NCBI GenBank assembly: GCA_002245135.1
Contig: NGBS01001175.1
Coordinates: 1 to 64,000, forward strand
Source of the DNA: Proteromonas lacertae
Lineage: Eukaryota
Reading direction: 5' to 3'
DNA length: 64,000 nucleotides
Shown: positions 1 through 27,623 of the stretch, piece after piece
How positions within the stretch are numbered: position 1 is the first letter of the stretch
Layout of the letters: the number at the start of each line of letters is the position of its first letter
The notes under the pieces: generated by a model
Seen by the model: the letters and a program-made list of their open reading frames with translations, nothing else
Told to the model about the DNA's origin: nothing
The model's database searches: none
Translations under genes and position numbers: made by a program

Positions 1-1804
1 CATCATATACCCAATCTGTTTCAGAATCAGTATCATTATTATTATCTACTGATGTAACAGGTTCATTTGGAGCTTCTGAATCTACTGGTGTAACAGGTTC
101 AGTTGGGGCTTCTGAATCTACATCATCATTATTTTGAAATATTGATGAATAAGGTACTTGTCTTGTAGTACCATCTAATCTAAAATGATTAACTGTATCT
201 GGTGGAGCAGTCGGATGTGATGGTGGTGTTATTGGTGAATATACCGGTGATACCTCTCTTGGTATTTCATTATTATTACTATAATCACTTGAAACTAAAG
301 GTGGTGGTATTGGTAAATCATTTTCATCATAATTAAGTCTATATGTATCATCATCAATATCATCTTGTACTGATTGAGCTTGTTGTTGTTGTGGTGGTGG
401 TGGTGTGATGATGGTTGAGGTTGAGAGTGTTGTTGTTGTTGTGGAACAAGGTTGTTGTACCACATTATTTCTAAATTTACATTTACATTACCTCTATTAG
501 GATTTAACTTGATATTTCCATTATAATCTGCTGATAAAGCTTCTTCAACAGGTAATAATGGTGGAAAAGAACTGATATATTTTTCTTTTGTGCTAATCTA
601 TTCATATAAAACATAATTGCATCAGCATAATGATTTGTATCTCTTTGTCCTTCTTTTATATTATTTGATTCAAGTATTTTTTGAATTGTTGCTATGTAAT
701 TCATTCTATATCCATTAGAAGCAGATGATGGTAAACCCATTATATTTCTTTTGTCATAATCAGGAGGTTCAGGATATACATTACCATCTCTTAAACTAGG
801 TATTTTATACTTACTAATAAAAAATAATTCTGTAACACAATTATATATCAATACAGCTATAGAGAATGCTGTTCTTTCTTGTTGTGCAGTTATATACCAA
901 AATTTCGTTTTCATTAACTTATTAATAAATATTCTTATCTTATTAATTGTTACAGAACAATACACTTGAATCGTTTGTGAATGAATTGATCTATCTATTA
1001 AAGGTTGATTTTCATAAGGATCATCAGGTAAATCATCATCATCTTCCTCATCATCATTATTACTATCTTCATTATTATTTTGTTGTTGTTGTGAATGTGG
1101 TTGAATTGATTGATTCATAATCGTTATTATCATATATATCTTTATCATCTTCTTCATTAAAAGGTTGTGTATGATCTTTTGTTTCTTTTTGTATTTTTCT
1201 AATTCTTTTATTTTCTAATTTAACAACATTCAATCTTTCTTTAGGATGAAGCACAACAAATGGATTATTTCTTAATATATAATTAGAAGCAATACATAAT
1301 TCATCAATAGCTTTATTTAATCTATCAACAATTATTTTAACATCATTGTTTGTTTCATAGCTATATTGATATAATGATTTATTTCTTGAAAACGGTCCAT
1401 GTTGATATAACGATTTACACCAGTTAAATAACTTCATATGTACATCATATAAATTATAGATTCTATTAAACTCATGATCAGGCCATCCTACTGGTATAAG
1501 TCTCTATCAATTATTTCATCTAATCTAATCTTGGTTAACTTTTTTGCATTATCATATATAATATCTTCATAATCTTCATTACTAAGATGTTCATCATTGC
1601 CTACAATACTTATATTATCAGAATCAGTATTTTCTTCTGTTTCATCATCATCATCATCATTATTAGCATTAACAGAATTATTACTATTATTAATACCATT
1701 ATTACTAGAATTGCTACGACTGTTATTATTTGAGTTATCTACTGCTGTACCTTCATCATCATCAAATTTAATAAATCTCTACGTATTCTATTACGATTGT
1801 TCAT
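1..1804 (-). pseudogene. Large low-complexity (N/D/P/Q-rich) intronless ORF of the viral element, broken by several frameshifts and running off the window's left edge
   Basis: From ATG 1804 (MNNRNRIRRDLL...), single-base shifts join the frames into ORFs 1075-1437 and 504-1157 and a Pro/Asp-rich frame reaching position 1. No recognisable domain. Confidence 0.5.
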
Positions 1805-1856
1805 TATGTGAGAAAAAATCAATTAACTTTTTATTTGAATAATTCTTATACATATA

Positions 1857-2822
1857 ATGCAACCTAAGAGTGATACTAATAATTAGGTCATAGAAGAGCA
1901 ATTTTTTTATCATCAACTGATATTATTGAAAGAGAGTCAGATGTATATACAAAGTGTTTATCAACACCTGTTATAACTGAAGAATATCAGTATATTACGT
2001 TAAACATAGGCAAGAATATCAAACAATAACATATACACTATTCAAAATGATGTTAATGAAAAGTATGTTTTGATATAGAATATTTTCATGTAAATGATCC
2101 TATAAACCCTTAAATGATCCAAGCGTAATATTAAGCGGACCAAAATTAAATACATTAGAGATAAAGATACCACAAATCATTATAGTGGTGAAGAGTTTTT
2201 AAATTATTTAACAAAGAGTATGTTAACTGAATTAAAATTTACTACACTAGTACGTAAAGATATTTTACCTGTAAAAGAAAAAGATGAAGATGAAAGTTTT
2301 AATTATTTCTTACATCCTCAAGCTGGAGATAAGATATTTGACTGGTATGATAAGACTACGAATAGATTAAAATTATATTGTGCAATATATACTCACTTTG
2401 GTAATTATATACTAACAAAAATAAAAATGCGAATGCCTAACCTATTTGGTAGGTTATTAGGTAGTAATGTAATAGATGACGAATTAATTATATTAGATAG
2501 TAATCCATCGCATAGTTGGGGTACAAAAGAACAATACTATGATCATAAATTTTTATTAACACCATCACTTATATGGTGTAATGTAATACAAGTTAGATGT
2601 AGTTGGGTTAATAATGGTGAGAATTCAGCTGTTTTAGCAAACATACCTATAACTGATATATCAAACACAAATATAACATGGGTTAATCCACAAATAGATT
2701 GGTCAACTAAAAAGATGCAATTTCATGATTATCAAAAAATAAAGTTCAATCTATCAAATGAAGATGGTTATGCTATAGATTTAACTAATATATCATTTCA
2801 ATTTGAGATAATAGTTTATTAA
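1857..2822 (+). CDS. Minor capsid (penton-like, single jelly-roll) protein; the N-terminal part (1857-~2120) is frameshifted and ORF 2220-2822 is intact
   Basis: The C-terminus VIQVRCSWV...VLANIPI...IKFNLSNEDGYAIDL..ISFQFEI fits the Polinton/PLV penton pattern. Upstream frames reconstruct to ...RAIFLSSTD...LNIARISNNNIYTI...HYSGEEFLNYL, and the last part is in frame with 2220. Confidence 0.75.
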
Positions 2823-2884
2823 ATACTTATATAATTTTTAATTTTTGATTGTATTACCATTTTTCTTACCAAAATTAAATATAT

Positions 2885-4414
2885 ATGAATAATATAACAA
2901 CTGTACCACAATCTCAAATTCATAACAGTGTTGTACCAACATTAATACCTGATTATGTCTACATTCCTATTACACCTAACCAAACAAGAGATGTAGTTGT
3001 TTTAAGTCAAACATCATCAACTGATACAATAACTTTTGAATTATCACCAGATAGTTGTATGAATTTATCAAAATCTTATCTCGATTTTGATTTAATAATC
3101 GATCCTCATATAGTATCTGCAAATCCTGGTAATCCTGCTGCAGCTGGTAATGCATATACTATAGCAGGACGAGCAGCAGCAGCATTACCAGGTCCTGCAG
3201 TAGGTGAAACTCATGCTTTAAGATTAAGAAACACAATGAATTTTAATTCAATTAAAGTATACAACAAAACAGGAACAGTATTATGCGATTTAGATAACAG
3301 CTATAATGAATATAGAGACTTAATGCATGAATTATCTTATCATTGTCCAGATGATGTGAAAGGTATTAAATATTATGATGATACATTTGATGGATGTCAT
3401 GTAGCAAAAGATAAAGCAAATGGTCAATATGAAGTAATAGATCCATTATTATTACATTATACTCCTGGTAATAGAACAAGATCTAGATGTGGTCTTAAAG
3501 AAGAACATTATATGGAAGTGATAGATCCTGTAGGAGGTGCACCAATGGTTGATATAAGAATAAAAAGGCATTGCCGATTTCATTTTGCTGATTTATTTAA
3601 TACAATTTTATCATGCAAAAGTGATATTTATTTTGGTGAAACAATTTATATTTCAATAACATTTGCAGGAATTAATTCATGGATATTATATAAGCATAAA
3701 TTAATTGCACAAACAGCTGAGGCTGATCATGATGGAGAAAGCTATTATGATGAATGGACAAGATTTATTGAAATGAATATAATAAATCCAAAATTATATG
3801 TTGCATATAATAAAAGTCCACAATGTAATGCAAATACAATTAATTATGTTACTCATCATGGTATAGATTTTACTGATTTCAATATAGTTCAGTTAGTAAA
3901 AGATACTATTACAGGTGATCCTAATTTTAGCTATAATTTTACTATTAATAGTAGTTTAGGTCCTTATGTGAAATATATATTATATAGAGTTTATATGAAT
4001 AATGTTGCAACTAGAACACCTTTACCTTTTAAGTTTGCTGATGATAGAGTTAAATGGCAAATAAATGATACACCATGTACACCAGATTATTTAAATATAA
4101 CTAAATATGAAACATTTGAAAAATTATATCCTATAATTAGAGGAACATATTTTGAGAGATGTCATCAAGAAATTGATTGGTATGAAAGATTTTTTGATAT
4201 ATTAAATTTCGGAAGTGATTCATTAACTGATATAAAATCAAGAGCAGGTAGAGATTTAAGTAAAGATTTAAAAATTACTTTTGAAGCAAGAAATCATGTT
4301 TTTGATACAAATAATACTGCTCATCATGCAGTAATGACATATCATCACAAGTTCTACATTATAACAGGTAAGATGTTAATCATCTCAGCTAGAGGAGTAG
4401 AGAAGGTGATTTAA
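2885..4414 (+). CDS. Major capsid protein (double jelly-roll), Polinton-like virus type, 509 aa
   Basis: Motifs ITFELSPDSCMNLSKSYLDFDL, FNSIKVYNKTGTVLCDLDNSYN and FADLFNTILSCKSDIYFGETIYISITFA resemble PLV MCPs. Size and position between penton and ATPase fit; intronless. Confidence 0.8.
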   Translation: MNNITTVPQSQIHNSVVPTLIPDYVYIPITPNQTRDVVVLSQTSSTDTITFELSPDSCMNLSKSYLDFDLIIDPHIVSANPGNPAAAGNAYTIAGRAAAALPGPAVGETHALRLRNTMNFNSIKVYNKTGTVLCDLDNSYNEYRDLMHELSYHCPDDVKGIKYYDDTFDGCHVAKDKANGQYEVIDPLLLHYTPGNRTRSRCGLKEEHYMEVIDPVGGAPMVDIRIKRHCRFHFADLFNTILSCKSDIYFGETIYISITFAGINSWILYKHKLIAQTAEADHDGESYYDEWTRFIEMNIINPKLYVAYNKSPQCNANTINYVTHHGIDFTDFNIVQLVKDTITGDPNFSYNFTINSSLGPYVKYILYRVYMNNVATRTPLPFKFADDRVKWQINDTPCTPDYLNITKYETFEKLYPIIRGTYFERCHQEIDWYERFFDILNFGSDSLTDIKSRAGRDLSKDLKITFEARNHVFDTNNTAHHAVMTYHHKFYIITGKMLIISARGVEKVI

Positions 4415-4467
4415 AAATTATGATTTTAATTACAATTTAATATTTCTATTGCTATTATTACTTTATT

Positions 4468-5229
4468 ATGTTTAAGTTTGAAAAAATAAATAACATAAGG
4501 GTTGAACCTGTAGATGGTGGTGAAAAATTCAATCCTAAGAAGATAGTTGGTTATGATTATTTCAATGAGCCATTTTGTAACATTTTTATAGTTGCTCGTA
4601 AAAATAGTGGTAAGACTACTCTCATCTATAATATATTAAGACATGTTTTGGATCCAAGATATAAAGAAAAACAACATGTTCACTTCTTTGTGGGAACTAT
4701 CAAACAAGACAAGTTATATGATTCAATCAAAGAATTACTCGATTATCACGAAATTGATTATGATGAAAATGATTCACTCATTGATCCAGAGTCAGGTGAG
4801 AATGTGGTAGAGAGAATGATGAAAGAAATAAATGATGTTGATAAAGATAATTATTCTTATGCTGAGCATATTATGATCTTTGATGATCTTAGTTTAGAAT
4901 TAAAAACATCAACAATAATACCTGTACTGATGAAAGAAAATAGACATTTAAAATCAAAAATTATTATTAGTAGTCAATATATAACAGATATAGTACCAGC
5001 AGCTAGATCACAAGTTGATTATTGTCTTACATTTTATGGGTTAAGTAATAGAAATCTATTTGATTTATACAACTCATTAAATATATGGATCCCTGAGTAT
5101 GAAACATTTAAAAAATTATATCTTGCAGTCACTAAACCACAATTCAATTTTTTATATATTGATAATGTTAAAAAAGTCTTTAGAGCAAATTTTAATATTA
5201 TGATTGAAGATCATTCTGAAGTTTCTTAA
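4468..5229 (+). CDS. A32-like (FtsK/HerA superfamily) genome packaging ATPase, 253 aa
   Basis: Walker A ARKNSGKT, Walker B IMIFDD, NRH arginine motif, IIISSQ sensor and ARSQVDY segment typical of Polinton/NCLDV packaging ATPases. Confidence 0.9.
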   Translation: MFKFEKINNIRVEPVDGGEKFNPKKIVGYDYFNEPFCNIFIVARKNSGKTTLIYNILRHVLDPRYKEKQHVHFFVGTIKQDKLYDSIKELLDYHEIDYDENDSLIDPESGENVVERMMKEINDVDKDNYSYAEHIMIFDDLSLELKTSTIIPVLMKENRHLKSKIIISSQYITDIVPAARSQVDYCLTFYGLSNRNLFDLYNSLNIWIPEYETFKKLYLAVTKPQFNFLYIDNVKKVFRANFNIMIEDHSEVS

Positions 5230-5284
5230 ATAATATTTTTATAAATATATATATATATATATATATATTCATTAATAAAAAATA

Positions 5285-5956
5285 ATGTTTATTGGGGATA
5301 GAAATAAAGTTGATGTATTAGATGAAGATAAATTAATAGATGATATTACAAATAATATTACAGATAAATTAGATGAAGTGAAAGATCAAATTCTAACAGT
5401 ATGTAATACAATAAATAGTGTAGTAAATAATATACCTCGTACTATAATACCAAGACCTTATTGTTTGCATAAACAACATACATTTTATTCTATGAAAAGA
5501 AAATATTTAGTTAATGGATCACCTGTATGGGATACTAAAATTACTAAAATACCAATCAAAATAGAGATGTTTGAGCATTTTATGAAGATTAAATTATATG
5601 ATGGTTTTACATGTAATTATAGTGGATATATAGGTCATCAATTATATTTAGATGAAGATGATATCATCAAAGCTGAACCTGGTAGAGATGAATATTTACA
5701 ACGTTATTATAATATACTACTAGGATTATACTCTAATAAATTATTCCCCATTAGAGCAACAAATGTTAAAGATACTTATCATACATTAACTAATAGACCT
5801 TATTATGAGATAAAACATACATTAGTTAATAATAATAATAATCAACCTACATTATGTATTGTAGCTGATCAATACCCTAATCAAGAATATCTTGCAATAC
5901 CAAGACAGACATTCTTCACAGATTATATGAACACAGGTATTACAGAATTCTTTTAA
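5285..5956 (+). CDS. Viral protein, putative short fiber/spike (MFIGDRN family, copy 1), 223 aa
   Basis: Starts MFIGDRN like the next ORF. Short helical segment then a beta-rich domain sharing PxPY, IPIK, IK[L/I]Y, YLD and FP motifs with copy 2. Function inferred. Confidence 0.5.
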   Translation: MFIGDRNKVDVLDEDKLIDDITNNITDKLDEVKDQILTVCNTINSVVNNIPRTIIPRPYCLHKQHTFYSMKRKYLVNGSPVWDTKITKIPIKIEMFEHFMKIKLYDGFTCNYSGYIGHQLYLDEDDIIKAEPGRDEYLQRYYNILLGLYSNKLFPIRATNVKDTYHTLTNRPYYEIKHTLVNNNNNQPTLCIVADQYPNQEYLAIPRQTFFTDYMNTGITEFF

Positions 5957-6056
5957 TATAATAATAATAATAATAATAATAATACGTATATATAAATCAG
6001 TTTTAAATTTCTTGATGAATTTAATAGATTTTATATTTTTTATAATATATAAAATT

Positions 6057-6941
6057 ATGTTTATTGGTGATAGAAATAATAATACATTAGATATTGATAC
6101 AAAAGAGATTGCAAGTGAGATATCAAAAAATGTTAGTGTTAATATAGATATTCAAACATTATCAGATTCTATATCACAAAAGATTCAAATACCAACACCT
6201 AATATAACTGTAGATAGTAATAGTATATCAACCTATATAAATCAACCAATAAATGATAATACTGATACTAAAACAAAAGCAATAAAAGATGAAGTAGATC
6301 AAATTTATAATGAAGTTGATACAATAAGAAATATTGAAAGAGTTGTAGGTTGTAATGATTATAATACTGATGAAGAATTATATATGACTCAAGGTTTTGG
6401 TAAATATGATTCAATTTATAATCATCTTAAATTAATAAATATATATAACCCACAACCTTATAGTATTCAAATTACTACATGGACTGTAAAAGTTACTAGA
6501 ACAGATAATACATCATCAATTATAGATCAGATACCTATTAAAGTTACAATATTCATGAATTCTATAAGAATCAAAATTTATAATACACATCAATTAATTT
6601 ATAATGATAGATCAGATATAAAACAAATTGATATTTATCTAGATGATAATCATTTATTATCAAAATTATATAGTAATCAATCTGTATTAACTGATTTTTA
6701 TAATAAGCTTATTGAAAAATACCCTAATGATGGTAGTAATTGTATAGTATTCCCATTACAAGTTTATAATAATTCTCAATACCCATCAGAATACATACCA
6801 ACACATTTTATATTAATAAATGATAATAAACCTAATCTACATTTACAAAGTGATAGTATTGAAGGTTATCAAAAACAATGTATATTACCTGGTGTTATTG
6901 AAACTATGTATATTGATTACAGTATTATCAATCCTTTATAA
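6057..6941 (+). CDS. Viral protein, putative long fiber/spike (MFIGDRN family, copy 2), 294 aa
   Basis: Start placed at ATG 6057 (MFIGDRN) by identity with copy 1. Longer N-terminal stalk and a paralogous C-terminal domain. Confidence 0.5.
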   Translation: MFIGDRNNNTLDIDTKEIASEISKNVSVNIDIQTLSDSISQKIQIPTPNITVDSNSISTYINQPINDNTDTKTKAIKDEVDQIYNEVDTIRNIERVVGCNDYNTDEELYMTQGFGKYDSIYNHLKLINIYNPQPYSIQITTWTVKVTRTDNTSSIIDQIPIKVTIFMNSIRIKIYNTHQLIYNDRSDIKQIDIYLDDNHLLSKLYSNQSVLTDFYNKLIEKYPNDGSNCIVFPLQVYNNSQYPSEYIPTHFILINDNKPNLHLQSDSIEGYQKQCILPGVIETMYIDYSIINPL

Positions 6942-7303
6942 TATACTATTTATTACATCATCAATATCTTTTAGTATAATTTTAGTATATTTTTAGTGAA
7001 TTATAAACACCTTTTATTAATTTTAGTGAAATCCCACCATGTATTATAAAATATTTATCCCATCATCCTTTATATCCCTACCAGTAAAACCAGTAGAACT
7101 TAGAATAACATAGCTTGTAGCGACCTGTTCTACCCCTGCCGTGGCTACTGTAGAGAAAGACTATAGATCAATATTTTACTATTAATCCATCAGTAATTAA
7201 TATTTCAAATTTTTTAATTTGTTTCCTCAATATTTTAAACATTTTGGATATTTTGGGTATAGGAACACTAAATATCCTGTTTATTCATATCCTCTATAAT
7301 ATA

Positions 7304-9305
7304 TAATACCAGATGTAAAACTACCTAAAGTTGTAGATGTGTTTAATAAAATAACAACTGTAAAACATTTTAATGTTCCAACAAATATGGAACGAGTAGG
7401 AGGTATTGTATAATGCAAAATTATTAAAACTGGACTTTTTGCAGGAAAAGCTGATATATTATCAGTTAAACATAATAGAACCGAAGATACTGTTATTGCA
7501 AGAATTAAATATATGTTTGATGTAGATGAAAAGCCTGCTATAATAGAACTTAATACCACTCCAGAAGCAACAACATCTGCTGAAGAATCTATATCTACTA
7601 CTACTAGTGAAACTGAATCCACATCTACAATTCTAACAGAAACAACAACAGCAAATAGACTTCGTGCTGTTTTAAGAGAAGCAGAAACATCATCAACAGA
7701 TACAACAGCATCAACAGAAACTACTGCAACTGAGAGTACAGCTACTACAACAGGATCAACTGATACAACAGCTTCCACTGAAACAACAGAAACTGCGTCA
7801 GCAGCAACTACAGTTGAAGAAACGACAACACCAACTTCAACTCCAGAACCAACAACAACTGCTCCTCCTCCACCACCTCCAACTGTTGAAAGATTTAATG
7901 TACCAGATTTGGAATATAGTGCAATACAACTAAGAAACGATTTAACAACATACATTCCTCAATATGTTCATGTAAACCATAATGTTACAATACCAGCTGA
8001 TGGTAACTACTCTGCAAGTACTTGGGGAGATATGAAGGAAGTACAGTGAGATTAGTGGATGAAGCATCTACTCCAGAACCTACTTTCAAGTATGAAGATA
8101 AGAATGTTACATTTTATTGTAACGAAATAGGTGAAAAAGGAAAGCCTGTAGTTAAACCATATGAAACATATGTCTATACTAAAGGTAATGATATATATTT
8201 TGTATTTAAAGATCAAAAAAACTTACCAAATGATGATGCTAATTGCTATTTAGCTGCTAATCCAAATGGGGACAAATTAGAAATATCAAAATTTGATATT
8301 GCCACAACATTAAAATGTAATAGTAACAATGTATGTAGAGGTTTCACTATTCCAGATCCTAAAGATCCAGAGTTAATTACTGTAAGTGATAATGAAGATG
8401 GAAGTTATACACTTCGAGCAACTGCTAAGACAATTGGTGAAAAAGCAATGCAAGCAATGTTATCTGCATATACTCAAAATGATAATAAATATGTGTTTAT
8501 ACCTATTTCACAAGATGATGATTATTATGGAAATATATTAATGAAGTTAACAGAAGGTGTGAAATTATCAGTTACTATATTCAATGATGGTAAAATTATT
8601 AATACTGTTCCTGCTGTAGTTAGTTCAGTTATTGGTGAAATATTGAATTTACCACATTATATTGTTAATGGAACAGATAATATAACTGCAACTGCTGAAC
8701 CAACAACTACAACAGCAAAACCTAGTAGGCGTATTTTAGTTGAATCATTTGAATCAAATACAATAAATTTACCAACTGTTTATACTTCAGTTCCATTTAC
8801 TCCTTTAGTAGGTTATGAAGACAAAGTAGGTTATACAACAGCTTCAATATCAATTGATTTAACTGAAAGTGATTCAAGAAAAACAATGGAATGTAGTGGT
8901 CAAGGATTATGTAATAGAGAAACAGGTCAATGTGAATGTTATGCTGGTTATGATGGAGATGCTTGTCAAAGATTGAGCTGTCCTAATGACTGTAGTAATC
9001 ATGGTCGATGTGTGAAAGTATATGAATCATTAGAAAATGCTAATGTGAATTTATATAAAGGATTTGGAAATGATGAATATATTTATAGTTGTATTTGTGA
9101 TGCTGGTCATCGTGGAAGTGATTGTAGTTTATTAGAATGTCCATCATCTGTAGATCCAATGAAAGCAACAAATGATAAAGATGATAAATCATCTGAACAA
9201 AGAGATTGTAGTGGTCGAGGTAATTGTGATTATTCAAGTGGTTTATGTAGTTGTTTTGATGGATTTTATGGTGAAGCTTGTCAAAATGCTAATACTTATG
9301 CTTAA
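7304..9305 (+). pseudogene. 5'-truncated mastigoneme-like (Ocm1/Sig1-type) EGF-repeat, Thr-rich surface protein gene
   Basis: C-terminal MECSGQGLCNRETGQCECYAGYDGDACQRLSCPNDCSNHGRC...RDCSGRGNCDYSSGLCSCF. Paralogous to 51096-53586 but lacks the signal peptide and first EGF; in-frame TAA at 7411-7413 and a frameshift near 8040. Confidence 0.75.
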
Positions 9306-9404
9306 ACACTTATAATGAATGAAATGAAATGAATCAAGATTTCTTTATTATATATTATATTATATTATATCTAAAATTGTTTGTATGAGAGTTATTATTC
9401 TTAA

Positions 9405-11039
9405 TTAAGAATCATCCTTTGAAATACTACTTCTAAATTTCTTTTTTATTACTCTATATGCTTTTGTACTATAATCATATTCAAAATAGTATTTATTCAA
9501 TATTTTCACTCCATTTTCTTCACTTTCTTCTTGTTTTAATAAAAATCTTGAATATCTCTCAATTGCTATAAATAAATAATATATTTTATATAATATATTA
9601 AATACGATTACTATTATTGAAAATACTCGATATTTCTTTAGAATAATCTTTAGTCAATGGTTGACCTACATAATTAGATATTGCTTGATATAGAGTAGAA
9701 TAACCAACTTCATTTCGTTTATACTTCTTATATGCTTTTTTACTCATTATTGATACTTGTTTCTCTATTGTATTGGTTAAATCTCCATTTGTTACTGGTT
9801 GTAATTGATTTATTACTGATGTTGAAAAACTACGATGAGATTCTTTATTACTTTTAAAACTTCTAATTGATGGAGTTCGATGTGGTGTTAAATATGAATT
9901 ATTATTATTATTATTATTATTATTATTTTGTAAAGACATCATTGATTTTGTTTCTCTTTTTATTGTATTACCAATTAATGGACTCGATGAAGGAATTGCT
10001 TGTGGTTGTTGTAATTGTGATGGTTGTTGTTGTTGGATTTGTTGTTGGAATTGTTGTTGTTGTTTTGTAAATTCATCTTGTCGATTCTCTAATAATGGTT
10101 TATATTTGGTTTCTAATTCTTTATCCACATTTATTACTCTTTCTGATTTACAGATTTCTTTATCTTTTTTGGTATTTACATCAGCTTCTAATCCTTTCAC
10201 TTCTATTTTTTGATGTTTTACTATTTGAATAAAATAGAAATAATTATAAACATATATCCTCAAATGAGAAAGTATTATTATTATTATCACTTATTATCAC
10301 TTATTATATTCAATATATATAACCAAAATAATATGTGTATATTATATTGAATATAATAAAAGTAAAAATAAATATCAAAATAATTAAATACAAAAAATAG
10401 CCTCTTTTCATCGGATTTATATAAATATATTTATTTATACATATTCTAACTGGATATGGATGTGTATCATCTATAACATTATAATCACAGGGAGTAGTAA
10501 CAGGAGTTATTTCATTTGAATTAATTATCTTATTCAATGATAAATTGTGAATATATAAAGGAGAAATATCAATTGATGGAGATAGTTTAGGGAGGTTCAC
10601 TTTTTACTAAGATATTAACAAATTACATGAATTATACAGTTAGGTTTAAATTCATCATTCAACATTGTTGAGAATATTGAGTCTTCATATTCTTTACATT
10701 TTAGATTAGGTTACTTCATCAATATCATAATATGATGATACTGTGGAACTTAGAAATTGTAACCAACCACTATCTTCTTCAGAAAATGCTCTAGATATAA
10801 AATCGATTATTTGGGGTTTACATTCCTCAATTTTGGCTTTCGTTGAAGAAAATATACTCAAAATTACATTTATCTATATACAATATCCACATAATACATC
10901 ATACTTTTTGAAGTAAGTTAAACTTGTGAAAATAATTCAATAAATCATCTAAATCCTGCTTGGATGGAGATGGTTGTACTTTCCATTCATTATTGTATTT
11001 CTTTGAAAGCGGTATGAACTTATTTGGATCAAAATTCAT
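9405..11039 (-). CDS. NELFA: NELF-A (WHSC2)-like protein, spliced; left copy with two apparent +1 indels
   Basis: Mirror copy of 49374-50996; extra bases near 10590 and 10708 relative to the right copy. Confidence 0.55.
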
Positions 11040-11145
11040 CTCAAGCCTTCAAAAATAGTTTGAATCATCCAAAAATAGTTTTGATTAACCCATTCTTTTA
11101 AAAACAAATTTAAATCAGTATTACATTTATATAAACTATAATCTA

Positions 11146-12240
11146 TTAATTTATTACTTTATCTAACACTATCACACTAAATTCAGCAATCATTTGTTTC
11201 AACAAACTTTCATTATTGTTTAATTCATGATTTTCATATTTCATTATCAATTTCCCCTTTCCATTCGCATTATAATTACTAACTCCAAATAATTTACAGA
11301 AATAATCAATCATCTTACCCACACTGTATTTCTTATCACAATATATTGAATATATTTTATTTTCATATTTTATATTATAATACAATCGATTATTTGGAGG
11401 AATTTTTGAATCTCCTTTAGCTATTCTTTTAAATCTATTTATATAGTATTATATTCAAATATCATATACTTCTGTGATTCTATCATTAATCTATTCTTCT
11501 CATTTCTTAAATATCCACTCAATGTTCCTATTCTTATTTTCACTATTCCTTTATTATCAATATATTTAGATATTTCTTCATCTAATTCTATTTTGGTATT
11601 ATTTATTAGTATTATTTTATCATCAAGTGATAGGTTATGTTTCATACAAAGTGATGATAATATTTCATTAAATTTGGTTGAGAAATTATTTATTATTAAT
11701 TTGTCTGTACAAATACCACTACTTCTAATCATTATTGTATAGAATATAATTAATACATTATTTCTATTTCATTTAAAGTCTTTTCTTTTGAATATTCTTT
11801 ATTTTTATTATCTATAAATTGATTTGACATTGCACATCTATCACAATTATGATCTAATGGATTTCTATAATACATTACTTCATAGTTCAAATTGTTATAT
11901 CAAATACCTGTGAAGTTTACAAAAACTATGATTACATTCACAACAAATGAATTTAGTTAATTCCTTGTTTTTACAACCATTCATTTCACAACTGTATGTT
12001 GATAATTCATCTACTACTTCACTAGTTTCTAAAATTCTTTTCTTATATCTATTATTTTATCGGATTTATTTTATACTCTACACAGTTATGCTTCTCATAT
12101 GACATATGATCTTTACAATACTTCTGGTGACAAAAATCACATTCAAAAGGAAGAAAATCTAAATCAATCTAAATATTAACAACACCTTTCTGATGACATT
12201 CACTAAAACTACAATAACAACCTACTTCGGTTAATTCCAT
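11146..12240 (-). CDS. ZFAND1: AN1-type zinc finger protein ZFAND1/Cuz1-like, spliced (left copy)
   Basis: MELTEVGCYCSFSECHQKDFLPFECDFCHQK.CKDH AN1 finger, a second finger, and a C-terminal AKGDSKIPPNNRLY...SVGKMID ubiquitin-like domain. Confidence 0.85.
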
Positions 12241-12379
12241 TATTTATTTCAAATACAAAAATGAAATGTATTATTCTCTGTATTTTATTGTATTTTGGTT
12301 TATTTCTTTAAATAAATAACATACAAACACATAACAAACAAAAAATCATTAAATTAAACAACAACAACAAAAATAAATA

Positions 12380-13339
12380 TTATATCTCATCAAATACAAA
12401 GCGACCAAAATCACCTTTTCGAAATCTCTCAATAAATCTTCTACTAGCAACACATTCATCACATTTTTCATTCTTACTAATCATCTTCAATACATAATCT
12501 ATATTATCAAGTTCTTCTTCACTTCCACTCAAATGTAACACTTTTCTATATTTATAATTCTTCAACTTATTCAGTTTAAACAATATAAAATCACATAATA
12601 CATCTTCATCCACTATTTTATCAGGAATACATCCAGCTAAACATAAATTCAATCCTACTTCATTATTCATATTATTATTAATTTGTAACTTTGGAATCAT
12701 TATACCTGGACTATCATAGATATATAAATCAGGATTATTATTGATTTTCAATGGATATATATTTCGAGTTAAACCAGGAGTTGCACCAACTTTTGGCACC
12801 TTTTACTATTTAATATATATATAATAAATACATCCTTTAAAATCATTCGAATTCTTTCTTATACAATTTATTATTGAAGATTTACCTACATTTGTTAAAC
12901 CAACTATTAGAAATATTGAACCCACTGTTTTGAATTTAGATGGACATGTCTTAATCATTGTTGGAATTAGTTTATTTATATTTATCTTTTGTTTTACTGA
13001 TATAAACAAACTAGATATATTCTGTTTGGAATAATATTCATTGATTTTAGGCCATTTCGATGAATCAGATAAATCACATTTATTAAATAATATCAATCGT
13101 GGTTTATTGGGAAACAGGGAATCAAAATTATGATTAGAAGTACTCAGTGGAAACTATATTCATTTTCATCTATGAATTATACTCTAGCATCACGAACTTC
13201 CATTAACATATCCACTCCTTTCACTTTCTCAGATAAAAGTCTTAAAGCTTTAGCCATATGACCAGGATACCTATAATTCATTATAACATCACATAATATA
13301 CCAGTTTATTGTGTTATTGTAAAGAAATTCATTTCTCAT
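12380..13339 (-). CDS. MTG1: Mitochondrial ribosome assembly GTPase MTG1/RbgA family, spliced (left copy)
   Basis: WYPGHMAKA, EVRDAR, NKCDL, GLTNVGKSS, GATPGLTR and DSPG motifs in circularly permuted order. Confidence 0.9.
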
Positions 13340-13387
13340 GCTTCTAAAATCAACTTTATTCAATCAAGCCTAATCAAGTTTTTGAAA

Positions 13388-16300
13388 ATGTTTTGTTTGA
13401 AATCTTTCATAGATGAAGTATTATTATCTATATTACCACCTAATTCTAATGTATTTTACTTTATTTATTTTTAATAGATAAAAGAAAGAATAGAAAAGAG
13501 TGAAAATGAGGTAGTTTTAGTTGTTGAACATAAGAATGAGATTAAAATGATAAAAATATTAGATGTTAATGAGATAAAAGAGAAGAAGATATTGAAATTC
13601 TTAGAAAATACCTCCTTATTGTTAGATTGTTGTGCTTCCTTAATATATCCTTTTCAAGTGTTTTTAAACAGTGACTGTGTTATAATATCAAGAAATTATT
13701 TCTCTAGAGACTTAAAAGAGATGATTCAAAGTAAATCTTTGTCTAATGTTGAAATATGTAATGTGATATGTTCTTTATGTGATATTATAATGATCTTAAG
13801 TGAATATGACTTAATGATAGGTAATTTAAAGAGTAGTAATGTAATATATGAAGAAAATGGCAATATAAAGTTATGTGATTTAATCCTAAATGCATTAAGA
13901 AAAGAAGATGAAATGAGAATATATGATATATGCTTCAAAAGTCCAGAAGAGATGAATGGATTAGAATATGATGAAAGAAGTGTAATTTGGTCAATTGGCT
14001 GTATATTATATGAGATGATTTGTAAGAAATTACCATTTAATGAAGATAATAATATGAATAAAACGAAAGAGAATATTGTGAGATGTAAATACAGTTTAGA
14101 TGTAGAATGTGATGATCAAGATGAAAGAAATGATATTCAGAATGTTGAAAGTGAAGAATGAAGATAGAATGAGATTGAAAGAGTTGATAAAAGAAATGAC
14201 AAAAATGAGTGAATTATTGAAAGATGATGAGAATGATTTTATGATATTCGAAGAAAGGAAGAAGTTTTTGTATAAAAATGATAAAAATAGTATTTTACTT
14301 CCAATAATCTATCCATCAGAATACTATCTTGAAAGATTGTTTGATAGAATCTTATAATTATAAACCTAACAAAAGAATATTGTCTATACTATTGATGATG
14401 AAATTATACAAACAAGATAAATCAATTATAGATAGACTGAAGTTTCATATTCATCATCAATGTAAAAATGAAAAGATGTATTGTTTAGATAGAATGATAT
14501 TTATTATTAGTACTGATTGTGAAGATAAAGGAAAAATTGTAATTGATTCAAAACACATTTGTTTCTGTAAAGAAGGGATGGATTATTTCTTCAATATACT
14601 GAAACAGATCAATCCAACAAAACTTCCAATTTGGTATAATATTAGTTATAATTTTGTCTTGTTTAAATAGTTTTTTATATTCCAATAAAATTTTAATCAA
14701 TTATCAAATCTTCAAGAAATTTATATACATTCATGTAATGTAGATTTTAATTTCATAGAATCATTTAGTTAAATCAATTCCATTCATGAAATTAAAATAT
14801 ATAAATCTTTCATGTATATCTTGATCTATTTAAATATATTATCTTGAAATAGACACACCAATTGGTTCAAAAGGATTTAGATTAATTCTTCCATATTTGC
14901 ATTTGTTAATCAACAAAAATAATGAATTGAATCTATGTGGAATGAATTTAAATGATGAATCAATGGTATTATTATCAGAAGAATTATTTAGATATGCAAA
15001 TATAAAAAAAATAGATATTATGCAAAACAAAAATATTCATTCTGTTGGATTAAAAGCTTTATTCTCCAAGTTTCCTATTTCAAAAATAGTATTTGATGTA
15101 AATGGATGTAAAGAATTATTGGTTGATAAAGATGTTCCAGAATTAATCAAATATATTAAAAGTAATAATAATGAATTAAATCTGAGTAATATGGAAATGA
15201 ATGATTATTTTTTTGATATCATTGATTTTTTTAAAATCAGAAGAATTAAGAAAAATAGGTAGATTAAATTTGTGTAGTATTATTTGTTTTTCTTTTTTAT
15301 TATGTAGATAATAAACTTAAGTCTATGAGTGTACAAATACTGATTAACAATTATACTTCATTTTATAAGTTTAAAGAACTTCAATTATGTGGGAATGATA
15401 TAGGAGATGAAGGAATGAAAATATTATCTCCTTATTTACATTTACTAAGAAGTAATGATTGTAAATTGAATTGTTCAAGTATAATAATTGTTGTTATTGT
15501 ATTGAATAGAAATGGGTTTATCTTCAGTTGGAATAAAACATTTGATGAATTATGTAGAAGAAGATCATTATATTGAAATGTTAGAGATTAACAGTATATA
15601 TGATTTATATTATTTTAATAGACAATCCAATAGGAAATAGTGGATTTAAGTCCTTGCTAAACAATTTAAAAATATTGATGGATTATGATAAAATAAATAA
15701 TGATTAATATCTCAATTGATGATGAAAGTATAATTCTGTTGGCAAGTAATCTTTAATCAATTGAAAATTGTGAAACTATAAATCTAAATGGAAACAGTGT
15801 AAGTATGAAAGGATTAGAATCAATATGTTCAAAATCATTAGAAAATGAAAATTATCCATTCATAGAAATGAAATGTTCATCGTGGACAAATGAAGAATTG
15901 GAGTATTATTTAGACTATTGTGTAAAGAAGAGAAGAAAAGATGAATATGATTTTTCCAGTATAGAATGTGATTATTCTATATAATAGATTTTGGTTTGAA
16001 TGATTCTCATATTTCAATAATTAAACAGATAAATTATAGATGGATTGATTTATCGAATAACAAAATTAGTTCTAAAGGATTGAAAGAATTAACTGATTTA
16101 TTACCAAATTCTTCAAAATATATTACTATTCATAATAATGAGATTGGAGATGAAGGAATAGAAATAACTTGTAAATATTTAAATAAGTTTACAAGGCGAA
16201 ATTATAAAAATCACCCATATTTATTGAATTTATCAAGTATTTTATATACATAATGTGAATTTATTATTTGAATAGATGTTGGTATAAGTGAAAAAGGATT

Positions 16301-16577
16301 AAAAGTGTTAATAGAGAGATTAAAAGATTATAAACCAATTAGAAATATTGATATATCAGGAAATGAATTGAATGAAAATGAATTAAGATTGATGAAAGAA
16401 AACAGAAGGATTTTTGAAGATTTGAATGAATTATGAATAACATTAAAAGAGAATATTGATAAATCCGAATTAATATCATTTTTACAAACATTTCCATCTG
16501 TAAGAAGAATAAAAGTGAATGGATTTTCAGAAAAAGAAAAGAATGATTTATCAAAAGAATTCTTTAATGTTGAATAA
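13388..16577 (+). pseudogene. Kinase-like (pseudokinase) plus RNI-type LRR protein, disrupted (left copy)
   Basis: Kinase subdomains IGNLKSSNV (no catalytic Asp), SPEE and IWSIGCILYE, followed by LRRs (NDIGDEGMKIL, NEIGDEGIEI). TAA at 15754 (CAA in the right copy), a 23-nt deletion near 14335 and further frameshifts. Confidence 0.75.
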
Positions 16578-16747
16578 TTAATTTTATTTTTATTATATTT
16601 CATTGTCAATTCTATTCATATGATTGTGATTTTGGAAATTTTCATTTATCCCAAAACTATCCCCAAATTCAATTTTTCATTAACCCAAATCCATTCAAAT
16701 TAAATAGACTTTCCCGCTTTTTAAAAAGCCAAAAATTCTTTTTGCTC

Positions 16748-19700
16748 ATGCTCACTCGTTTTGAGACTACTAGCAATAGAGTGAAGGGTTTGAGTTTCCA
16801 CCCACATCGACCTTGGTTATTAGCCAGTTTACACACAGGAAGTATCCAATTATGGGATTATCAAATGAAAGCTTTAATTGATGTATTTGATGAACATACA
16901 GCTCCAGTCCGTGGTGTTTGTTTTCATCAAAGTCAGCCTTTATTTGTGTCAGGAAGTGATGATTTCAAAATCAAAGTATGGAATTACAAACAACGAAAAT
17001 GTCTATTCACACTTCTTGGTCATTGTGATTATGTGCGAAGTGTAAAGTTTCATCCCGAATATCCTTGGATTTTGAGTAGTTCTGATGATCAAACGATAAG
17101 AATATGGAATTGGCAAAGTAGAGAATGTATATCCGTCCTTACTGGACATAACCACTATGTAATGTATGCTGAATTCCATCCAACAAAGGATTTAGTCTTA
17201 TCAACCTCCTTAGATACAACGATAAGAGTATGGGATGTATCAGCGTTAAGAAAGAAGAAAGTAAATGGAACGCCAGGTGAAGAACAACAAGCAGCTGGTT
17301 TGGGTCGTTTAAATTCCGAATTATTTGGAGTAGTAAAATTTGTTCTTGAAGGTCATGATCGATGTGTAAATTGGGCAAGTTTCCATCCAACTTTAAATTT
17401 AATAGTTTCAGGATCTGATGATAGACAAGTGAAGATATGGCGATATAATGATTCAAAGGCATGGGAAGTTGACACTTTAAGAGGACATACTGGAAATGTA
17501 AGTTGTGTATTATTCCATCCAACAAAGAATCTTATATTTAGTGACAGTGAAGATCATTCTATTCGTATATGGGATGCAACAAAGAGAATTTGTATTCAGA
17601 AGTTTAGTCGACCTCATGATAGATATTGGGTAATGGCAATGCATCCAAGTCAAGATTTAATAGCAGCAGGTCATGATAATGGTTTAATAATATTCAAATT
17701 GAATAGAGAAAGACCAGCTTATTATACCAATGGAAATGAGTTATATTATGTGAAAGATAAATATATTCGATTATATGATTATACTTCCACGAAAGATATT
17801 CCAATATCAAGTATATCTAATAATTCGAATATCCAACCAAAACAATTGATATATAATTCAATGAATCCAAGTGAAAGTAATATAATATTATTTTCCACAG
17901 CTGATGGTGGAACATATGAAATATATCGAACAGGTAAAGGTGAAAATACAAATGGAAGTGAGCCAATAAAAGGTAATGGATTAAGTGCCTTATTTACAGC
18001 TAGAAATCGTATAGCTGTATTAGAAAAAGATCGAAAGATAAGTATAAGAAGTCTTGACAATCAATTAACTAAACCAGTAACACCTCCATCAGGTAATTGG
18101 AGTGAAATATTTGCTGGTGGAATAATTGGTCGAATATTATTAAGAAGTGATGATCGAATAGTATTATTTGATACAACCAGTCGAAAACAATTAGGAAGTG
18201 CAATAGTAAATGGTGTAAAATATGTTCAATGGAATGATAATAATGAATATGTTGCATTAATGAGTAAAGATACAGTATGGATATGTAATAAAGATTTAGA
18301 AATAATCTCTACTTCGAATGAGCCAATGAGTGTAAAAGGTGGTAGTTGGGATAAAAGAGGTGCATTTATATATAGTACATTAAGTCATATAAAATATATA
18401 ATACCAAGTGGAGATAGTGGTGTAATAAGAACAATCGATTTTCCATGTTATGTGACTAAAATTGAAAATAAACATGTATATGTATTAGATAGAGATTGTA
18501 AACCTCGAAGATTAGCGATTGATCCAACTGAATATGAGTTTAAAATAGCATTAGAAAGTCGAAATATTCAAGAAGTATTAAGAATAATAAAGAGTGGTAA
18601 ATTATGTGGTGAAGCAATAATTGAATATTTACATAAGAAAGGATATCCTGAAGTTGCATTAAACTTTGTAAGTGATACATCCTCTCGATTTGATTTAGCG
18701 TTGAAATGTGGTAATATTGAAATAGCAGCTGAATGTGCAATTAGTTTAAATAAAGATGAATATTATGAGAAATTAGCTGATGTAGCTTTATCAAGAGGTA
18801 AAATATCAGTAGCTGAAATGGCTTATCAAAAGACAAAATCATTTGAGAAATTATCATATTTGTATTTATTAACAGGTAATAATGATAAATTACAGAAAAT
18901 GTATAAGATAGCAGAAATGAGACAAAATGTAATGTCCAAATATCTAAATGCATTATTATTAGGAAATGCAGAAGAAAGAGTAAAAATATTAGAAGATGCT
19001 GGTGAGAATAGTTTAGCTTATTTAACTGCTTTAACATACAATTTAAATGATAAATTAGAGAATATTCAAGCTGCTTTAGATACAAATAATATTCCAATAC
19101 CTGTAAAGAGTGAAAATAGTGAAGAATTATATCCACCCAAAACTGTAGAATTAGTAAATGATTGGGTAATTGGAGATAAAAGAAGTAATTATTTTGAATC
19201 TGCTGGAATGCCTCAAGGAAATAATAATAATAATAATGAAGATGATGATGATGATGAAGAAGAAGAAGGAGAAGAAGAAGAAGAAAACAATAAAAATGAT
19301 GAAGATGATTGGAATAAGAATGATGATAATAAAGGAAATGAAGCCAATGAATGGGGTGATGATCTTGAAATACCTGCTGATGAATTACCTGATACAATTG
19401 TAAATACATCAAATAAAAATGAAAAAGATGAATTTAGTATGGAAGAAAGTGGAAATATCGTAAGTGGAACAAGATTACCATCTGCGAAAGATTATTGGAT
19501 TGATAGTTCATCTTTAGCTGCAATTCATATAGCTGGTGGTTCAATAGAAAGTGGAATGAGATTATTAAATCGTCAAATTGGTGTAATTAACTTTGATCCA
19601 TTAAAAGAAGTATTTCGAAGTGTTTATTATGGCAGTGAAATATTTTGTCCTGGTTATTCAATAAGTCCACCAATTGGATATGAATTAATACATGATGGAA

Positions 19701-20459
19701 GTAAAGTCAATTCAATGAAGAAAACAGTACCTCCAAGTACAATAAAGTTCAGTCATTTAGTTGAGAGATTAAAAGAAGGATATAAATATTTCCAATTGGG
19801 TAAATTTACTGAAAGTATGAATACATTTTTAAAGATCTTGACGAGTTTACCATTATTAATAGTAAGTCATAAAAGTGAAAGTGATGAAGTAAAAGAATTA
19901 GTAAGTGTAAGCCGTGATTATATAACTGCTTGTCGATTAGAATTATATCGTCGAAGTATTCAATCAAATGATGGAGTTAGAGGATTAGAATTGAGTTGTT
20001 ATATGACTCATTGTAATTTACAAGCTAATCATTTGTTATTAGTATTGAATTTAGCAATGACAAGTGCTTATAAATTGAAGAATTATATAACTTCAGCTGA
20101 TTTTGCAAGAAGAATATTAGAAATCAATGAAATAAACAAACAAAATAATGCTCAATTAAAAGATAAAGTATATATATAAATATATATATATTATTATTAT
20201 TATTATATAATAGACACTTAAAGTATTACAAGCATCTGAGAAACAAGGAAGAAATGAAAATGAATTGAATTATAATAGTCAAAATCAATGGGTAATAAAC
20301 TGTGAGAAATTTTTACCATTAAATAAAAGTGATGAAATAATGAAATGTCCATATTGTGGATCTAGTTATGATGTGAGTTATAAAGGTAAGTTATGTTTGA
20401 CTTGTAATTTGAGTGAAGTTGGTTTACAGACACTTGGTTTAGTTTGTAGTTTAAATTAA
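16748..20459 (+). CDS. COPA: Coatomer subunit alpha (left copy), one intron at 20168-20213
   Basis: MLTRFETTSNRVKGLSFHP start, WD40 repeats, alpha-solenoid, and C-terminal CPYCGS...CLTCNLSEVG zinc site. Confidence 0.97.
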
Positions 20460-20670
20460 GCTTAATGAAATACAATTATTCTTCTTGTTAATTGAAATCA
20501 TATTATTAATTGTTGTTTGATTTGATTTGATTATTGCAAATGAAAGAAGAAATGTTTAATGTGAAAATAAAATGAAAAGAAAAACAATATTCTGTTTATA
20601 AATAGACATTTCTGTAATTTTAAGCCTCGTCAAACGAATAAATATTTTGAAACATCAAACAAGTTTGAAA

Positions 20671-21391
20671 ATGTTTAATTTTACATTTTTACATGATAAT
20701 GTAATGAAATCTGTATTTCCGCCTAATGTGAAGGTACTGTTTTTGAATTATTTTGAATAGATAAAAGAAAGAATAGAAAAGAGTGTTAATGAGGTAGTTT
20801 TAGTTGTACAACATGAAGATGATATTAAAATGATGAAAGTGTTAAATGTAGGTGATGTAGAAGAAAAAAGTATATTAAAATTCCATGAAATGAATTTGTT
20901 ATTGTTAGATTTCTGTTTATCGTTTGTTAATCCTTCTAAAATGTTTGTAAAGAATGATTGTATGATAATATTACGAGAATATTACTCTAGAGACTTAGAA
21001 GGGGTAATTCAAAGTAAATCTTTGTTAAGTGTTGAAATATGTAATGTGATATGTTATTTATGGAATTGTACTATTATTTAAAAATTGTATTTCAAAGAAA
21101 AGAAATCAGTTTAATAAAAACTATGATTTTTTAGGTATAAATGTTGTTTTATAAAGAAATAGATGTAAAGGATTGAAAGAATTAACAGATTCTTTATCAA
21201 GAGATGTAGAACATATTTCAATATTTAATAATCCTATTGGAGATGAAGGAATAGAGATAATATGTAAATACTTAGATAAATTTGTTGAATATCAACCATC
21301 TTTGAATTTATCTAGTATTTTTTGAATATATAATGGATTATCAGAAGAAGTAAAGAAAGAAATATGTAAAAATTATATTAATGTTGAATAA
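20671..21391 (+). pseudogene. Internally deleted remnant of a third pseudokinase-LRR paralog
   Basis: The 5' part parallels 13388 onward (IKERIEKS.NEVVLVV, YYSRDL, VEICNVI) and joins almost directly to the terminal LRR (NNPIGDEGIEIICKYL...NVE*). Confidence 0.7.
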
Positions 21392-25802: not shown

Positions 25803-26653
25803 TTAGCTGTTACTAGGAGTAACAATCCTACTAATACTTAAATTCTTATGACTAGCATCAATACCTGAATCTTCATAATCCCATCGGTCTATATTCTCCT
25901 TCAGTCTCTCCAAATTCTTAGTAAATGATAAATCAGTTTTGTCATAATCCAATTTACTCACTTTATCATAATAATTATGTGCTTTATCAACAGCCAATTC
26001 TTGTTGATTTGAAGTAGTTCTTAAAAATATACAATAATTCACTACTAAAGCAATTGTGACTGAATGTTTCATTAAAATGTCACTACTATTTGAAATTTCA
26101 AATGCTTTAAGATAACTATTACCTGCTTCTTCTAAACATTTTATACAATCCTTTTCTTTAGAATATGCCTTTGATTCTATGATATATCGATAATAATCAC
26201 CTTTTGTTTTCAGTAAGAGAGTAAGACTAATATCAGAATATTCATAGTTTGTTAAATGTACATCAATTACGTTGATTAAATCACTGCATCTTGATAGTAA
26301 TTCATTTAAAATACACACTCTGTATTGCGAACACAAATCTGGCTATTTAATATATAAGAAAATATGTAAAATATACTCTATCAAAGTCTAAATCATTCTC
26401 TACTTGAGTAATTTTGTGTAATGATTCTCTTAAACTTTTTATGGTTAAATAATATGCACTAAGAGCTGATTTTAAATTATCTAAACTTAATAACTGTTCT
26501 ATTTTTAACAATTTTAAGGAAGCATAAAAACCCAAATCCTAATAATAAGATTATATATAATAGTACTTTCAAATCTGTTTCTGTACTAATGCTACATAAT
26601 TTAGCAAGAGTATTTAAGTCGTCTAAAGTCTCTATAAATGAAAAATTAATCAT
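25803..26653 (-). CDS. Divergent 14-3-3-like protein A, spliced
   Basis: KTKGDYYRYIIE, IALVVNYCIF and LKENIDRW correspond to 14-3-3 helices 5, 7 and 9. Confidence 0.75.
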
Positions 26654-26806
26654 TAAATTCTTTTTTGTTCGAAATTTTTCGATAACCCAAAATATTAAAA
26701 ACCTCACAATTTCCTTTTAAACCTTAAAAACAAATGTACAAAAACATAACACATTTTATTTAACAAATTTACATTTATTGAAGAAAAATCATTTACATTT
26801 ACACAT

Positions 26807-27623
26807 TTAAACTGTTACTTCATGATGAAGTTGGCTATAACTCATATATTTTCTTTGGTTTCCCAAACCAATATCTTGATGATCCCATTTTTCAATGTTA
26901 TCCTTTAATAGATTCAAATATTTCACTAATTCTGAATCATTCTTGTCATACTCCACATGAGATATACTTTCAAAACATTCAGATGCTTTCTTATATGCTA
27001 ACTGATGTTGTTGATAATTATCACGTAAAAATATTGTAAAATTTACCATAAATGACACTTTACAAGATAATGGGATTGAATCATCTCTTTTATATACTTC
27101 TTCACCATCAAGATATGATTTATATGCACTTTCTATATATTCAGCATAGTTATTATCTTCTGGGTATAGCTCGATAATGTATCTATAATAATCCCCTTTA
27201 ATCTTGTATAAATCCAAGAGAGAATGACTATCATAATCCATAGTAAGTTGGTTTTCATCTATCAGGTCGATCAGCTTTACACAAAGATCACGTAATTCTT
27301 CTTGAACTATTTGATGGTATCTTGATAACAAATCAGGACGAATTTCTGAATCAAAACTCTCTTCTTTCTTAACTATTTCGCTTATTGTCCGCCTAATGTT
27401 CTTTACTACCAAATAATAACTTGATGATGCTAAATGAATTGTTTTAGGTGTTAATTTTTGGCGGCATGATAAGAGTTGTACAGCCGAAGCATAACTTAAA
27501 GCCTACAATAACAATGTGAGAAATAAATACTGTTAAATCCTTTTCACTACTAAAAACGCACAATCCTTCTAACGTATGGATGTCATTAATTTCACTAATA
27601 AAATTAAAAGTGAGAGCCGACAT
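26807..27623 (-). CDS. Divergent 14-3-3-like protein B, spliced (tandem paralog of A)
   Basis: ELRDLCVKLIDLID, YKIKGDYYRYIIE, VNFTIF and LLKDNIEKW. Confidence 0.78.

Follow-up and report, generated by a model that had tools for sequence, protein, structure and literature searches.

The window analysed here is a 64,000-nt stretch of Proteromonas lacertae DNA (assembly GCA_002245135.1, contig NGBS01001175.1, positions 1 to 64,000 of the forward strand). It has a GC content of 26.7% and carries eukaryotic genes, as judged by Pfam (COPA, kinases, 14-3-3, HSP70 and the flagellar gene DRC7). Together with a 26-nt intron and EGF genes of the hair-protein type, these features would suit a flagellated, Opalinata-like stramenopile; the related literature records the loss of nearly all flagellar genes in Blastocystis (PMC12129017). 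Viral genes occupy the left end of the window and are followed, across a short non-coding gap, by a host EGF gene without its 5' end. The features of the locus are as follows.

1-1778, minus strand: low-complexity frames, broken by frameshifts and open at the left edge of the window, putatively viral from their intronless layout beside the capsid module
1857-2822, plus strand: ORF 5' of the capsid gene, from the ORF list, a minor-capsid candidate by position only
2885-4414, plus strand: intact gene for a double jelly-roll (DJR) major capsid protein (MCP) of 509 aa, from an AlphaFold model and Foldseek
4468-5229, plus strand: intact gene for an A32-type packaging ATPase, from matches to Pox_A32 and STIV B204
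5285-5956, plus strand: viral ORF A, a paralog of ORF B (E = 4e-8)
6057-6941, plus strand: viral ORF B, from the ORF list, the last ORF ahead of the junction
6942-7303, no strand: non-coding gap of 362 nt, candidate right terminal repeat, with three tandem arrays (6969-6997, 7080-7099 and 7230-7260), a GC-richer patch and an imperfect hairpin
7300-9305, plus strand: 5'-truncated host EGF (mastigoneme-like) gene, with coding signal from 7300-7309 and a stop codon ending at 9305
8390-20840, plus strand: one of the two inverted arms of a segmental duplication, with 98.4% identity to about 52030-39600 and its left breakpoint inside the EGF gene
51096-53586, minus strand: full-length paralog of the EGF gene, with a signal peptide and EGF exon, a 26-nt intron (53405-53380), a T-rich middle and C-terminal EGFs

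We assign 1-6941 to an endogenous Polinton-like virus (PLV), of which it forms a part, on the basis of its DJR capsid and A32-type ATPase, both of which serve to recognize PLV / Polisuviricotina EVEs. Although the AlphaFold model of the MCP is of low confidence (pLDDT 50.9), the top Foldseek matches in the PDB listed for it were all DJR capsids. The best of these was the mavirus MCP (E = 1.9e-9), at 10% identity and thus a likeness at the level of the fold only, and Foldseek also returned an adintovirus protein (E = 2.2e-10) and a MELD virus protein (E = 1.9e-9). The A32/FtsK-type packaging ATPase was found by a match to Pox_A32 at E = 4.7e-4 (20.1 bits, under the curated cut-off of 22.8) and to the STIV B204 ATPase at E = 0.007. 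A profile search with the MCP gave 261 matches at E ≤ 0.001, 12 of these at 1e-30, and seven homologs with 33-54% identity were found among 7995 scored candidates, all of them present only in Logan. The capsid clade is uncatalogued. PLVs have been described in P. lacertae itself (bioRxiv 10.64898/2026.07.28.741278), the P. lacertae row of Table S1 in PMC10120064 gives 285, which we take as capsid hits, and Blastocystis carries MELD viruses according to PMC8502044. Our element resembles these Opalinata Polinton-like EVEs and Blastocystis MELD viruses in that a MELD virus protein is among the top fold matches of its capsid, and in that the capsid matched no Pfam family. Its homolog P0001 had no Pfam match either.

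The remaining viral frames are less informative. ORFs A and B (5285-6941) are tandem paralogs that share their first seven residues and 26% identity overall; the predicted fold of ORF B was uninformative (pLDDT 31), and from their position both are candidates for fibre or receptor-binding proteins. The minor-capsid (penton) candidate has several frameshifts in its 5' part, and its unbroken frame, 2118-2822, had no Pfam or PHROG match. Further left, Pfam families were absent from 2-487, 504-1214 and 1075-1503, PHROG gave only weak matches over 1-1778, and an ESM Atlas search of 504-1103 found no match. Because an ORF runs off position 1, the element extends beyond the window. Within 1-6941, neither an integrase (rve or tyrosine recombinase) nor a replication gene (pPolB or primase-helicase) was identified with Pfam and PHROG, and no maturation protease was found in the visible part of the element. 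About ten frameshifts lie within 1-2200 and none in the 4.7 kb of 2200-6941, a contrast that suggests poor consensus nearby, or else a mosaic of decayed and intact copies. For multicopy EVEs, a consensus artefact of this pattern is described in PMC10120064 (section 7), and there and in PMC8547959 such elements are said to yield a false consensus and to assemble in fragments; decay may nonetheless account for the frameshifts here.

The capsid gene also contains a strong DNA hairpin at 3117-3200 (z = -5.5 and -6.6, 0 of 200 shuffles), which is in frame and codes for a loop of ~30 residues. This loop is missing from five of the seven homologs and has a different filling in P0001, and the fragment P0005 does not cover it. 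A small insert and a cis-element are both conceivable readings of this coding palindrome.

As the initial annotation had it, about 360 nt of non-coding DNA follow the last viral ORF: ORF B ends at 6941, and 6942-7299 holds no ORF of more than 50 codons. The small direct repeats named there are present, with TTTTAGTGAA at 6991 and 7021, CCAGTA at 7081 and 7090, and ATTTTGG at 7241 and 7250, and they exceed what is seen in dinucleotide shuffles (p = 0.012 for the count of 10-mers). Three tandem arrays of period at least 8 occurred in only 1 of 1000 shuffles. However, a trio of such arrays is also found in 3 of 107 host tiles of the same length, so the repeats, while real, do not mark a terminal repeat. 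The GC-richer patch placed at ~7110-7160 is likewise real: it spans 7113-7162 with 27 G+C in 50 nt, a value reached in 0.1% of 5000 shuffles. It folds no better than shuffled sequence (z = -0.24 and -0.52), and an Rfam search over 1-9400 gave three chance-level matches, none of them in the gap; that the patch is a cis-element is a guess. An imperfect hairpin (z = -1.95, 8 of 200 shuffles) lies at ~7236-7284, with 20 nt between it and the junction. We also considered an ATCCTYTATA motif, three of whose four copies in the window fall in 6931-7298, and dropped it after a post-hoc control in which 24 of 101 host tiles held some 10-mer in three dispersed copies.

Motifs of the AGTAGT/AGAGAG type are terminal motifs, and none is present in 7150-7400. 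Nor does 6900-7420 contain a perfect palindrome with arms of at least 7 bp and a loop of at most 7 nt, and 6900-7400 has no inverted partner in the window above chance. Since the element exits the left edge, the window holds no inverted partner, no 5' half of the gene and no target-site duplication (TSD). Because the repeats are ordinary, no inverted partner lies in the window and no long palindrome is present, the gap fits a right terminal inverted repeat (TIR) by position and size only; we treat it as a candidate that may be, or contain, this TIR.

On the host side, the switch to coding sequence that had been placed at ~7304 lies at 7300-7309, with the minimum of the cumulative codon score at 7306. 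The codon score of 7300-7386 was matched by none of 3000 base shuffles, and its composition is host-like (GC3 0.03, GC1 0.45); a k-mer virus/host classifier showed no sharp boundary. The homology claimed for this first segment, of IIPDVKLPKVVD to PEVTTVFPSLVN of the paralog, did not reach significance (p = 0.51 for 7300-7341 and 0.42 for 7300-7386). Significant homology begins at about 7342-7385, downstream of the start of codon periodicity near 7306: 7342-7410 matches the paralog with p = 0.0005, and the BLASTP match, which starts at codon 26, ~7375, has E = 1e-15 and covers 54 residues at 50% identity. In a five-way alignment, the proline at 7324 is invariant.

The signal peptide and first EGF are missing from this copy, as the initial annotation reported, and the Cys segment that follows them is gone as well. 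Apart from cross-matches to C-terminal EGFs, the first 112 residues of the family members P0035-P0037 and the 5' exons of the paralog match the window only at the paralog, so the truncation is real in the assembly. Altogether some 130 residues at the N-terminus, present in each of the four fuller family members, are missing from the copy. No part of the family is better conserved than the N-terminal exon (the paralog and P0035-P0037 share 86-87% identity in the first exon), so this absence reflects truncation and not divergence. The reading frame of the truncated copy is further interrupted by a TAA at 7411-7413 and by a frameshift near 8040. Introns from the GT-AG list that would remove the stops at 7297 or 7411 were rejected, as they either broke the frame or deleted conserved residues. 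None of 37 candidates at E ≤ 1 was a full-length relative from the truncated copy's own subfamily.

The paralog, which had been called intact, has one frameshift in the assembly, at a G run near 52795, which is probably a consensus error. It and P0035 have the layout of mastigoneme proteins, with a signal peptide (by hydropathy only) and 3-4 EGF-like domains but without a transmembrane segment. Published mastigoneme proteins are described as having a signal peptide and 3-4 EGF domains but lacking a membrane anchor (PMC12223298; bioRxiv 10.64898/2026.09.11.750887), and the paralog fits the stramenopile examples, such as Phytophthora PnMas as presented in PMC12223298, in its domain layout. The homologs retrieved for the EGF proteins were all unnamed proteins. 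Unlike these, the EGF family here has a long, Thr/Glu-rich and fast-diverging middle. Comparison of 7385-8390 with 53100-52030 shows conserved ends and a middle that diverges fast with many non-synonymous changes, in the manner of variable surface antigens.

At ~8390 the identity between the truncated copy and the paralog rises from ~55% to more than 90%. Here the inverted duplication begins, which is 12.4 kb long and accounts for two copies of COPA and of a kinase; it represents a segmental duplication, or else a contig into which two haplotypes were joined. The shared 3' part of the EGF gene has 19 non-synonymous and 14 synonymous differences in 304 codons, compared with 3 and 22 in the 1140 codons of COPA. 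The jump in identity and the start of the duplication within the EGF gene together indicate that this gene is a point of recombination or conversion independent of the virus. The other breakpoint falls within an older duplicate of part of the kinase region, where 20664-21391 resembles 13381-13779 and 16064-16577. Between the two arms, a mucin-like gene (30327-34454) encodes a long Thr/Ser/Asp tandem array and is likely another surface protein, and two divergent 14-3-3-like genes lie in tandem on the minus strand at 25803-27502, one recognized by a Pfam match (26807-27502) and the other by eye.

Several integrating viruses offer points of comparison. The EMALEs, endogenous mavirus-like virophages of Cafeteria burkhardae, are reported in PMC8547959 to lie in predicted host genes at 15 of 29 sites and in exons at 13 of 29, with no sequence specificity, to have TIRs of 0.2-2.3 kb and TSDs of mostly 3-5 bp, and to include partial elements and false stops arising from assembly. 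Our element shares with them a stramenopile host, a DJR capsid with an ATPase and a probable exonic site, and their TIR range, as given there, includes 0.36 kb. It differs in that its capsid is related to theirs at the level of the fold only (10% identity), in that no protease, rve integrase or pPolB was seen in 1-6941, and in that it has no GC contrast to its host. More broadly, such elements are usually 15-30 kb long, and TIRs are seen at about 47% of the EVE loci that are well assembled (PMC10120064); for PLVs, TIRs and TSDs of 4-6 bp are given as standard, with elements using a tyrosine recombinase having no TSDs (PMC12220804). The TIRs of Halocafeteria PLVs average 485 bp, and their tips carry 52-nt palindromes (bioRxiv 10.64898/2026.07.28.741278). 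The imperfect hairpin 20 nt from our junction recalls these palindromic tips of Halocafeteria PLVs and virophages; however, a long, near-perfect terminal palindrome of their type is absent from 6900-7420.

The initial annotation proposed that the junction arose by insertion into a mastigoneme-like gene. Its arrangement stands, with virus on the left, a host gene lacking its 5' end on the right and the switch between them near 7304, while the mechanism is the likeliest one only. On balance, we think that the virus probably integrated into exon 2 of a host EGF surface-protein gene and split it. The coding signal begins abruptly, at 7300-7309, in the gene's own frame, and the 0.36 kb of non-coding DNA after the last ORF is within known TIR sizes. 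If so, the 5' half of the gene would lie beyond the far end of the element, left of the window, the 362-nt gap would be or contain the right TIR, and the first 3-9 host bases would be the TSD, provided that the integrase, whose gene would lie outside the visible part, is of the rve type. The decapitated copy, deprived of its signal peptide, would be dead, its stop and frameshift representing early decay or consensus error, and its loss would be buffered by paralogs. Tolerance because the gene is multicopy is plausible, with one paralog in the window. Against insertion stand the independent role of the gene as a rearrangement point, with the 12.4-kb inverted duplication starting at ~8390, the many frameshifts in 1-2200, the absence of a distinctive terminal signature in the gap, and the fact that neither an integrase nor a polymerase was identified in the visible part.

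Because the gene is also a breakpoint of the inverted duplication, a later deletion or a misassembly must be weighed as rivals to insertion. The virus could have integrated upstream or elsewhere, with a later deletion or ectopic recombination removing the 5' end of the gene, and perhaps part of the TIR, and so joining the two. The locus is prone to rearrangement, one breakpoint of the duplication falling in the EGF gene and the other in the older kinase-region duplicate, and truncated and TIR-less elements are described in bioRxiv 10.64898/2026.07.28.741278 and PMC8547959. However, this course of events requires two steps, and the whole 362-nt non-coding stretch after the last ORF has been retained; we regard it as unlikely, if the most serious of the alternatives to direct insertion into the exon.

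A second alternative, which we find improbable, concerns the gap itself, which instead of being the viral terminus would be a separate small insert with a 15-nt direct repeat at its borders, or what decay has left of the host gene's own 5' end. The repeat (6931-6945 and 7289-7303, 14 of 15 positions identical) flanks the gap exactly, and only 3 of 4940 TAA sites, its own included, match the left copy so well, which, with 12 TAA sites in the vicinity of the junction, amounts to a chance of ~0.5%, uncorrected, that one of them would do so. However, it was found post hoc, three dispersed copies of some 10-mer being present in 24 of 101 host tiles, and it would be unparsimonious for a virus to end exactly at a stop codon. 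As for a host relic, 7060-7165 shows a weak coding-like signal (p about 0.02-0.05), and the gap loosely echoes, in collinear order, the EGF, the intron and the beginning of exon 2 of the paralog. These echoes were not significant in any comparison of the gap with the paralog's 5' end (p = 0.05-0.46 in eight of eight DNA tests, 0.34 for protein). In addition, GC3 in the GC patch is 0.26-0.28 compared with 0.03-0.10 in the EGF gene family, and Pfam had no match in any of the four gap frames tested. The least probable alternative is that assembly created the junction, by way of a chimeric read or of a misjoin at a multicopy element, an origin which would suit the frameshifts of 1-2200 and the false consensus and fragmentation that PMC10120064 and PMC8547959 describe for multicopy EVEs, but which sits poorly with the lack of a long shared repeat at the junction (no match in the window), the 4.7 kb free of frame breaks to its left and the unique, diverged paralog that forms the host side.

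Insertion into the exon thus remains our preferred reading; it does not extend to a choice of target. The suggestion that multicopy surface-protein genes are preferred targets is not borne out, since a single site cannot demonstrate preference, and exonic insertion without sequence specificity is the norm for EMALEs. Scans of viral, metagenome and genome contig collections returned zero loci holding other copies or relatives with DNA, and an alignment of 56 sequences was too divergent to yield patterns. Literature searches, in which PLV insertion and mastigoneme genes were not directly paired, gave no report of the one into the other, which is weak evidence. We give very little credence to the broader idea that an uncatalogued PLV clade of gut stramenopiles preferentially inserts into the variable middle exon of multicopy hair-protein genes, such that insertion and recombination there would turn surface variants off or shuffle them, the GC patch at 7113-7162 serving as a cis-element of the terminus.

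The junction is present in the assembly, and the event is probably an ordinary one with an outcome already described for such viruses. Its value is modest: it maps a junction for a capsid clade of which close relatives, at 33-54% identity, were found only as unnamed Logan proteins, and it would gain greater weight only if a genome-wide census showed insertions to be enriched in the EGF surface-gene family. If confirmed, it would add to the cases, already documented for the EMALEs, in which integration of a DNA virus knocks out a protist gene that is redundant.
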